Notes: generated by a model from the letters alone, not told the origin. DNA of 64,000 nucleotides from Escherichia coli (GCF_003018235.1 NZ_CP027438.1), one strand, 5' to 3'; positions 54,741 to 56,560 are shown, counted from the stretch's first letter. Made by a program: numbers and translations.

Positions 54741-54964
54741 AAGATTGCTGTTAGAATCAGGCAGCGCTCGCCGCAGCCATGTAACCGAGCGTAGCGAGCG
54801 AACTGGCGAGGAAGCGAAGAGGTATCGTTCCTGCAGATAGCTCTTACGCTCAACACAAGAATATTTTTCCATCCTCTGTGGGAAACAGGTCAACGTCGTG
54901 GACGGCCTGATCTGCGGGAAACACCACAAGTATAGGCGCACACGGATAGCCTGTTCAGGGCAAT

Positions 54965-55065
54965 AAGTGTGACAATCTACCCTCATGTATAGTGACAAAT
55001 CACCCTCAACCTGCCGGATCAAATGTGACGAACCACCCTCAAATCTGTGACAGATAACCCTCAAA
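54965..55065. repeat. incC: RepFIA incC-type iterons downstream of repE
   Basis: Four direct repeats GTGACA-N4-ACCCTCA at about 54967, 54992, 55025 and 55046. Confidence 0.65.
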
Positions 55066-55821
55066 CTATTCTGTTGTCATCGAGGTAATATCACGGAAGG
55101 AAAATACGATATGAGTCGTCTGGCGGCCTTTCTTTTTCTCGATATAAGAGAGGCGCATTGGTGTCCGGCTATTGATCTCATCAACACTTGCCTGCAGGAA
55201 ACGCCGGCGAAAATCCGGCATACGTTGGTAACTTTGAGGTAGCTGGTAGCGCTCCATGATCCAGTCGATTTTCAGGGACACGACACCTGAGCCATCAGGT
55301 TTACGGTACTGACACAGGGATTCGTATAAACGCATGGCATACGGATTGGTAATCTCTTTTGTTTCACTGAGCCGGAACTGAGTAAACCGGTTTTGTAGCC
55401 CGATGAAAAAGGGAATGAGATATGGGTTGATATGTACACTGTAAATCCCTCTGGATGGACTGTGCGCACGTTTGATAAACCAAGGAAAGGATTCATACCC
55501 TTTTTCATCACCGGCATCCTCTTCAGGGCGATAGAAAACCACTTCCTTACCCGCAAAACCTTTTAAAGCCTGTCGAATATCCTTACTGGCTTCAGCGGAG
55601 GTTAGCCCGAATGTTTCAGCGTATTTAGCAACGTGAATTTCGCAGATGCCATCAGGTTCTTGCAGGGAGCCGTCGGATTTTCTGATCTGGTCAACGAACA
55701 GATACAGCATACGCTTTTGATCCCTAGAAAGACTATATGCCGCCTCAGTCAGCTCATTTGACTGGACAATCCGCGGGCTATTTTTACGTTTTTTATGGTT
55801 TATAACCGCTATTTCCGCCAT
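55066..55821 (-). CDS. repE: RepFIA replication initiator RepE
   Basis: 251 aa from [48 protein letters not shown]...; flanked by iterons and a palindromic operator. Confidence 0.9.
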
Positions 55822-55854
55822 GACAGCTCCATGTGAAGTGTGACAGATTTTTAG

Positions 55855-56125
55855 ATTGTCACACTTCATAAAACAGAGTCAACAGGGATGGATAACTTTG
55901 TGAAAAGCAACACCATCTGAGGGCAATTTGTCACAGGGTTAAGGGTGATCTGTCACAGAAAGGACTACTATTTGAGGGTGATTTGTCACATTGAAAGGGC
56001 GGTTTGTCACAGTTCCCCCTCTGGAGGCCGTATGGATAAAGGCCTGCAAGCATTCTAAAAATAAAGATCTAACAACTATAAAAAAGATCTTATAAAAATA
56101 ACTAGGTGGATAAGTGGATAACCCC
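55855..56125. other. ori2: RepFIA ori2: RepE operator palindrome, four iterons, AT-rich region and two DnaA boxes
   Basis: Palindrome GAAGTGTGACAGATTTTTAGATTGTCACACTTC (55855-55887); iterons TGAGGGYRRTTTGTCAC (55917-56012); AT-rich 56040-56100; GTGGATAAG and GTGGATAAC at 56106-56123. Confidence 0.7.
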
Positions 56126-56196
56126 TAGGTAAGGAGATTTTTCAGGCATAGAGCGTAAGCGGAATATATAAGTACTGTTCCCTGGTGCTTCCTCGC

Positions 56197-56560
56197 TCAC
56201 TCGGGGCTTCGCCCTGTCGCTCGGCTGCGGCGAGCACTGCTGGCTCGATCATATCCGTAACCAAAAGTACGCCGCACTGGGTAAAATACGGCATATCCAG
56301 ACATTTTACTAAGCAATTTGAATTCAGCAGACCTCATCGGCGAGCAGGACCTTAAGCGGTATACCGGCATACAGCATGTGCATCGCATAGGAATGTCGGA
56401 ACGTATGTGGCGTGACCGGGACGTAATGGAGCAGGGCACTTACCTCGGGAGCCAGCAGATATTTCGGCAGTTCATCATGGACCATCGACATCTGGCGGAT
56501 AATCAATGGCAACAGGAAGTTGTGCAGACTGTCCGACAGAATACACTGCCGGTACCATGA
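56197..56560 (-). pseudogene. resD: Tyrosine recombinase (resD-like) remnant
   Basis: Short minus-strand ORFs in two frames; one has the [21 protein letters not shown] box; far too short for a full resolvase and squeezed between ccdB and ori2. Confidence 0.5.

Follow-up and report, generated by a model that had tools for sequence, protein, structure and literature searches.

In ColE1 and at ori2 of the F plasmid, an imperfect DNA hairpin acts as the assembly site for the PriA-dependent primosome, which comprises PriA, DnaT, DnaB, DnaC and DnaG. The subject of this analysis is a pair of elements, here termed the left and right arms, that lie on either side of the RepFIA replicon in the window, that is, the whole stretch of 64,000 nucleotides of Escherichia coli DNA (GCF_003018235.1, NZ_CP027438.1) that was analysed. 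The arms are very probably two oppositely oriented copies of the single-strand initiation (ssi) element of the ColE1-ssiA or n'-pas type, some 57 nt in length, which adopts an imperfect hairpin once the DNA is unwound.

Within the ColE1 record RNA II is transcribed in the + sense and the RNA/DNA switch lies near position 1200, such that the stretch 1295-1361, in which the n'-pas/ssiA primosome assembly signal has been located (PMC3167613), lies downstream of the RNA II-primed origin by about 100-160 nt and belongs to the displaced strand, which forms the lagging-strand template. For F, the primosome site of ori2 has as its landmarks, quoted in PMC4627060 from Imber, Low & Ray 1983, an XhoI site 133 bp from a BglII site, and the pEC958 paper annotates an ssiA upstream of oriV-2 (PMC4398462). 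A further system is RSF1010 where, according to PMC8567376, oriV likewise carries two inverted ssi elements, ssiA and ssiB, on opposite strands at a single origin. The RSF1010 signals are 40 nt long, adjacent and specific for the RepB' plasmid primase; they are unrelated in sequence to the arms, which differ further in lying 1.4 kb apart and in being of the host PriA type to judge from their homology. Unlike ColE1, the window has two inward-facing copies, and these flank an origin that depends upon iterons, RepE and DnaA.

The sequence-only reading had described imperfect inverted copies flanking incC, repE and ori2, and this description is upheld by alignment. A repeat search pairs 54761-54795 with 56206-56240 (35 nt, 77% complementary), while gapped local alignment of 54746-54850 with the reverse complement of 56166-56270 gives a score of 37, against maxima of 29 in 2000 shuffles and 28 among 2969 random window segments. 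The words that had been quoted from the repeats, GCTTCCTCGC and CTGCGGCGAGC, are both present within 56189-56235, with their complements within 54766-54815. An exact gapped motif finds the left arm only, owing to a 1-nt difference in spacing, and alignment and profile search were used in its place. With the family profile the 64 kb yields two copies and no more, 54762-54818 (+) and 56239-56183 (-), which are as follows.

54762-54818, + strand: left arm, a hairpin element of the ssiA family (n'-pas type); nhmmer 52 bits, ColE1 alignment E 1e-8
56183-56239, - strand: right arm, the ssiA of ori2 (n'-pas type); nhmmer 41 bits, ColE1 ssiA alignment E 4e-9

Both arms align co-linearly with ColE1 1295-1361, and there are reciprocal matches in F, in the IncR plasmid pCfr-36808cz (NZ_MG557997, locus L006) and in NZ_CP026754 (locus L002). 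The ssiA of ColE1/pBR322 is 71-78% identical to the arms and has in common with them the invariant blocks GCTCGCCGCAG and GCGAGGAAGC, as well as a covarying hairpin with an apex of the GCGNAGC type. In the left arm it is the + strand, and in the right arm the - strand, that is equivalent to the active strand of ColE1. No Rfam family covers the arms.

For F ori2 an ssiA/pas has been published, and the right arm is its counterpart. In F (NC_002483, locus L003), which has both arms (4027-4085 on the + strand and 5620-5565 on the - strand) together with an intact resD, the right arm spans an XhoI site that is 133 bp from a BglII site, thereby matching the quoted landmarks. The F ssiA is 93% identical to the right arm of the window, in the same orientation and in the same place between resD and the DnaA boxes. 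The differences are that the window has lost the XhoI site, with CCCCGAG in place of CCCTCGAG, and that the spacer between arm and resD is shorter and of different sequence. The left arm is 93% identical to its F copy and 98% identical to its IncR copy, and by homology it would likewise be an active pas. Across plasmids, then, orthologous arms are 93-98% identical, whereas the two arms of any one plasmid are only 67-71% alike and so no closer to each other than to ColE1 ssiA (71-78%), from which it follows that the arms are an old paralogous pair kept by selection rather than the scar of a recent duplication or insertion. They have long been a regular part of the RepFIA basic replicon, whose conserved sequence extends outward as far as the arms and no further.

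The second line of evidence comes from the wider family. Species-representative genomes were scanned once with the pattern GCTCGCCGCAG-N24-34-GCGAGGAAGC, giving 120 loci that comprised many Enterobacterales plasmids, contaminants from pUC, pBR322 and bacterial artificial chromosome (BAC) vectors, and chance matches in G+C-rich genomes. About one third of the matches were dropped by eye before alignment as chance or vector contamination, a step which is subjective, and 43 distinct members were aligned. RNAalifold folds these 43 sequences into one long imperfect hairpin, with an outer stem followed by a conserved CGC(C)/GCG stem, then a variable one and, at the apex, a mini-stem of the GCGNAGC type, with 97.1% of cells paired on this consensus. 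All five of the variable pairs carry compensatory changes (for instance columns 5:61, with CG in 20, GC in 13 and AU in 5), while a sixth changing pair varies on one side only. Covariation scores 0.284 in this alignment; shuffling gives 0.140, with none of 500 shuffles reaching the observed value, and slid registers do not exceed 0.056. Wobbles on the modelled strand amount to 20 G·T cells against 2 A·C cells, an asymmetry that points to the modelled strand as the one that folds, although with related sequences this is only indicative. The apex (54793-54799 and 56207-56213; alignment columns 32-39) reads GCGTAGC in the left arm and in ColE1 and GCGAAGC in the right arm, and GCGNAGC belongs to a class of "extraordinarily stable mini-hairpin" sequences that has been reviewed for other priming origins (PMC13037366).

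Two further groups of sequences emerged from the scan. A shorter ssi subtype of 45-46 nt is found at loci L017 and L044 (Rosenbergiella contigs), L088, L097, L103, L120 and L121, with a 6-bp stem that itself covaries (TTTGAC/GTCAAA, ATTGAC/GTCAAT, ACTGAC/GTCAGT, CTTGAC/GTCAAG and GTTGAC/GTCAAC). This subtype may be the ssi of pHW126/pIGRK-type plasmids, deletion of which caused multimerisation (PMC6854812). Exact copies of the pUC/pBR322 or F/BAC-vector ssiA also occur on short contigs (L008, L013, L014, L022-L025, L039, L063, L065, L071 and others) assigned to Streptomyces, Cutibacterium, Mycolicibacter, Paracoccus, Alicyclobacillus and assorted metagenome-assembled genomes, and these are almost certainly cloning-vector contamination.

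The arms lie within the RepFIA module of the window. All the parts of a RepFIA basic replicon are present, namely the RepE initiator, the ori2 iterons, the DnaA boxes with an A+T-rich region and the incC iterons, and on the - strand the module reads ccdA, ccdB, resD fragments, ori2, repE and incC, followed by a small ParA-type partition locus. Its features, other than the arms, are given below in order of position, together with the evidence for each.

54875-54923, + strand: about 1.3 copies of a 36-bp repeat (repeat search, TRF on NZ_MG557997, alignment, BLAST)
54968-55063, + strand: incC, four RepE iterons (iteron pattern search, repeat search)
55066-55821, - strand: repE, intact, 251 aa (open reading frame (ORF); RepE WP_000807692.1 in NZ_CP076711.1)
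55834-55882, - strand: promoter/operator region of repE with an inverted half-iteron repeat (promoter-like site 55882-55855; inverted repeat 55852-55866)
55918-56011, - strand: ori2, four RepE iterons (iteron pattern search, repeat search)
56040-56121, - strand: A+T-rich region of ori2, with two BglII sites and two tandem DnaA boxes (sequence, DnaA-box search)
56268-56295, - strand: terminator-like hairpin 3' of the resD remnant (consensus scan only)
56339-56594, - strand: resD pseudogene with three internal deletions (BLAST against the intact gene of L002, tblastn with F ResD, PGAP)
56595-57120, - strand: ccdB (56595-56900) and ccdA (56902-57120), both intact (ORFs; annotation of NZ_CP076711.1)
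57121-57522, - strand: homologue of the F ori1/rfsF region, upstream of ccdA (BLAST to F, 87%)

The arms thus have between them the four incC iterons, repE with its operator, the four ori2 iterons, the A+T-rich region and the two DnaA boxes (56105-56113 and 56113-56121), with the right arm about 60 bp beyond the DnaA boxes and the left arm about 150 bp beyond incC. The iteron search gives eight matches, four in incC and four in ori2, where 0.13 are expected, and RepE is 95% identical to that of F. In multiple alignments of five lineages the DnaA boxes are invariant and the arms are as conserved as the boxes, while the sequence just outside the arms is unrelated: the left arm, as the outermost block that the window, F, IncR and L002 have conserved, borders on three partition loci unrelated to one another, and beyond the right arm the spacers differ.

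Polarity is equally regular. The ssi that is upstream of the origin lies on the sense strand of rep in all 12 of the fetched loci where a gene of the Rep_3 type could be placed, and the copy downstream of rep, where there is one, lies on the opposite strand in six of six, so that the pair always faces inward.

Several observations count against the identification of both arms as primosome-assembly sites. Seven of the 13 pairs of the consensus hairpin are invariant because the search pattern fixed them, which leaves the weight on the five pairs that vary. Thermodynamic folding of single arms is unremarkable (z of -1.5 to +0.2), and single-sequence DNA folding of both strands of the arms and of ColE1 ssiA gives no significant stability, so the hairpin structure rests on covariation and not on stability. 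The outer stem of the left arm is weaker, with G·A at 5:61 and, in F, also C·A at 6:60. Finally, several RepE-type replicons, L019 (Pantoea), L095 and L126, have the upstream copy only, and the second arm is therefore dispensable.

Is the left arm, then, a working signal at all? A rival view is that the right arm alone is a functional ssiA, the left arm being a non-functional remnant, now in decay, of an old duplication. This would suit the weaker outer stem of left arms, the lack of a left arm in some RepE replicons and the fact that the accessible literature mentions only the ssiA upstream of oriV-2. However, the left arm is 93-98% conserved in F, IncR and the window despite the unrelated sequence immediately outside it, it keeps all of the invariant blocks and scores higher against the profile than the right arm (52 against 41 bits), and its polarity is opposite to that of rep in six of six cases. 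On balance a relic is rather unlikely.

If both arms are primosome-assembly sites, the course of events at this origin may be pictured as follows. The A+T-rich region would be opened by RepE, DnaA and HU, and the unwinding would expose the right arm on the - strand. PriA-dependent assembly at the right arm would then load DnaB onto the - strand, from where it would move leftwards through ori2 and repE, a direction of travel consistent with the unidirectional movement given in PMC4627060. A primer made at the right arm would be extended rightwards, and hence outward. The left arm would act as the mirror image of this, with a primosome on the + strand that travels rightwards and a primer that is extended leftwards.

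The comparison with IncR places the arms in a broader evolutionary setting. Both arms are found in the IncR plasmid, at 98% identity to their counterparts in the window, and the IncR replicon has the same layout of resD, right arm, DnaA boxes with A+T-rich region, rep, repeats, left arm and par. Over 54762-54923 and 56015-56497 of the window, the two plasmids have 81-98% DNA identity in resD, the right arm, the DnaA boxes and A+T-rich region, and the left arm with about 100 bp beside it. In contrast, the IncR Rep is only 32% identical to RepE, the iterons are different, and the 36-bp repeat is expanded to 10.4 copies. Between IncFIA and IncR, therefore, the initiator and iterons have been replaced while the resD and par flanks and the arms have been kept. 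L007 and L091 have the rep-origin core the other way round with respect to resD and par.

From this it might be proposed that the inward-facing PriA-type hairpins set the bounds of a conserved "origin chassis", made up of resD, ssi, DnaA boxes with A+T-rich region, then ssi and par, into which cassettes of initiator plus iterons are exchanged, as in IncFIA, IncR and the inverted L007-type replicons, and that the pair is a two-sided device for leading-strand priming like ssiA and ssiB of RSF1010. The proposal is tentative and unlikely. Were it true, the arms would be both functional priming signals and preferred evolutionary breakpoints for the swapping of replication specificity.

The 36-bp unit lies between the left arm and incC in both the window and L002, forms the 10.4-copy tandem array downstream of rep in IncR (3618-3993 of L006), and is found only as a fragment in F. 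The unit may be a vestige of IncR-type iterons in the RepFIA replicon.

The arms could also be read as signals that insulate in double-stranded form, either protein-binding sites or terminators, and not as single-strand priming signals. Their position at the borders of the module, between the ccd-resD operon and ori2 on one side and between incC and the partition promoter on the other, would be apt for such a role, but neither arm is followed by a run of T, and the terminator scan flags 56295-56268 and 54457-54437 instead. Given in addition the homology to an experimentally defined primosome site and the strand-specific wobble bias, insulation is a very unlikely function.

Still less probable, and indeed scarcely to be expected, is that a site-specific recombinase, either ResD/rfsF-like or Xer-like, acts at the arms, which would make the cassette invertible or exchangeable. 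The arms do adjoin a tyrosine-recombinase gene in F-type and IncR replicons, and the opposite orientation of the core in L007 and L091 is what an invertible cassette would give. Nevertheless, they have no similarity to the F ori1/rfsF region and no dif/cer-like core, F, L002, IncR and the window do not differ in orientation, the family occurs in ColE1-type plasmids that have no such recombinase, and the wobble asymmetry points to a function in single-stranded DNA. That the arms are the terminal inverted repeats of a transposon or MITE-like element that mobilised the repE/ori2 cassette is already largely refuted and barely tenable, since the inverted orientation around a discrete module, the breaks in inter-plasmid homology exactly at the outer edges of both arms and the exchange of the interior between IncFIA and IncR with arms retained are outweighed by the lack of a target-site duplication or of any direct word common to both outer ends, the absence of a transposase between the arms (repE only), the 67-71% likeness of the arms to each other when orthologues reach 93-98%, the retention of both ends beside the resD and par flanks through the swap of the interior, where a mobile interior should travel with its ends, the single occurrence of family members beside ColE1-type and other origins, and compensatory changes that are intramolecular, within one arm.

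The sequence-only reading had taken the repeats as a sign of past site-specific or transpositional rearrangement of the replicon cassette, which is contradicted by the presence of the arms in F and IncR and by the lack of both target duplication and transposase. For annotation, the repeats are better labelled as ssi or primosome-assembly sites of the RepFIA replicon than as mobile-element scars. The finding as a whole is one of known replicon anatomy and routine gene decay; only some comparative points are mildly new, namely that F and IncR have conserved a mirror-image second ssi after incC, that the hairpin family clearly covaries, that the pair invariably faces inward, and that homology between replicon types stops at the arms, which would bound a chassis for cassette exchange.

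The gene decay concerns resD. The description of the tyrosine-recombinase gene as reduced to short fragments is correct: relative to the intact 807-bp resD of NZ_CP026754 (L002), which served as reference, the window lacks 167, 395 and 17 bp of the gene, the deletion junctions lying in imperfect repeats of 10, 7 and 4 bp, respectively. The 167-bp deletion removes the last 46 or so codons together with 27 bp downstream. What remains of ResD, by tblastn with the F protein, is residues 1-33, 36-65 (frameshifted) and about 198-222, such that Arg82, His228 and the catalytic Tyr237 (numbered on F ResD) are deleted. PGAP annotates two resD pseudogene fragments at the equivalent positions of NZ_CP076711.1 (7814-7897 and 7892-8069). 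Matches to this stretch are found in 2,533 of 5,426 complete E. coli genomes, yet the deleted configuration of resD is seen in 1 plasmid only. The gene is an ordinary, lineage-specific pseudogene that arose from three deletions at short direct repeats. Its loss is independent of the arms, because the deletions lie well away from the arms, which relatives with an intact resD have in unchanged form; the proposed link between repeats and resD loss fails for the same reason, F having the same arms and an intact gene.

In other respects the region resembles the ResD/rfsF system of F. The position of resD after ccdB and the presence of ori1/rfsF-homologous DNA upstream of ccdA are the same, and it is the pseudogene, without Arg82, His228 and Tyr237, that sets the window apart. 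The pEC958 paper likewise places rfsF/oriV-1 upstream of ccdAB (PMC4398462). The retained region, with a putative rfsF, matches F 45938-46340 at 87%. Homology to F and to L002 ends in both cases at 57522, where the truncated C-terminus of a Tn3-family tnpA (Pfam DDE_Tnp_Tn3) abuts, followed by a fragment of an IS91-type Zn-binding transposase (region 57297-58378). A 219-aa ORF at 57297-57956 is an artefact of read-through across the 57522 junction. On the other side of the resD remnant, between it and the right arm, the terminator-like hairpin has a T-rich tail and is possibly the end of the ccdAB-resD transcription unit; the 98-bp spacer around it (56246-56343) is common to NZ_CP026754 and not to F.

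Does the plasmid have another means to resolve multimers? An intact resolvase elsewhere would have undercut the idea that this function was lost, and none encoded by the plasmid was found: neither tblastn of the window (with a gamma-delta resolvase and the ResD proteins of F and L002 as queries), nor Pfam scans of the extra region, nor the full annotation of the twin plasmid NZ_CP076711.1 gives a second tyrosine or serine recombinase. A search for Xer sites of the cer type, with an 8-bp spacer, likewise found nothing. There is, though, a dif-like XerC/XerD site, GATGCGCACAATCTATCTTATGTTAAAT, at 14780-14807, with a 6-bp spacer and 0.01 occurrences expected by chance. The site adjoins the end of an ISNCY-family transposase remnant, and together with about 300 bp beside it is 86-87% conserved in some 645 plasmids, mostly conjugative IncF, with homology stopping exactly at the end of the XerD arm. 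It could be either a host-dependent multimer-resolution site or a target of insertion sequences (IS). The claimed loss of multimer resolution is therefore right as far as ResD is concerned, but it may be incomplete, in that host XerCD could substitute for ResD through the dif-like site.

With regard to incC, the window has four iterons, while the close relative L002 has an additional iteron-bearing segment of about 75-93 bp (3710-3785). The incC of F is reported with five iterons. Fewer incC iterons could raise copy number.

The plasmid to which the window belongs has a near twin in NZ_CP076711.1, a 69-kb plasmid of E. coli O158:H23 that is typed as IncFIA+IncFIC (PLSDB assigns it to IncFIA) and that has numerous IS fragments and a decayed tra region besides a type IV pilus cluster. 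The window matches most of this plasmid at 99.4-99.9% identity, the exceptions being one inversion and about 3 kb of additional sequence. It serves as an example of a virulence-type plasmid that bears a type IV pilus cluster and has lost its own resolvase to decay. Rfam matches at 32173-32260, 33064-33221, 44744-44853 and 38797-38981 are to CopA, sok, FinP with the traJ 5' untranslated region, and AS-pc02. CopA belongs to a second replicon of the IncFII/FIC type, so that the plasmid has two replicons. It also has two partition systems, of the ParA type (53304-54310) and the ParM/ParR type (51695-53086), and at least three toxin-antitoxin loci (ccdAB, hok/sok and relE/phd). With its own resolvase decayed, the plasmid may depend on host XerCD for the resolution of multimers. 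As for the differences from the twin, window 1-20898 is inverted relative to NZ_CP076711.1 with IS-bounded junctions (compared stretch 1-23947), and window 40233-48528 is about 3.2 kb longer than its counterpart and holds an IS3-family transposase.

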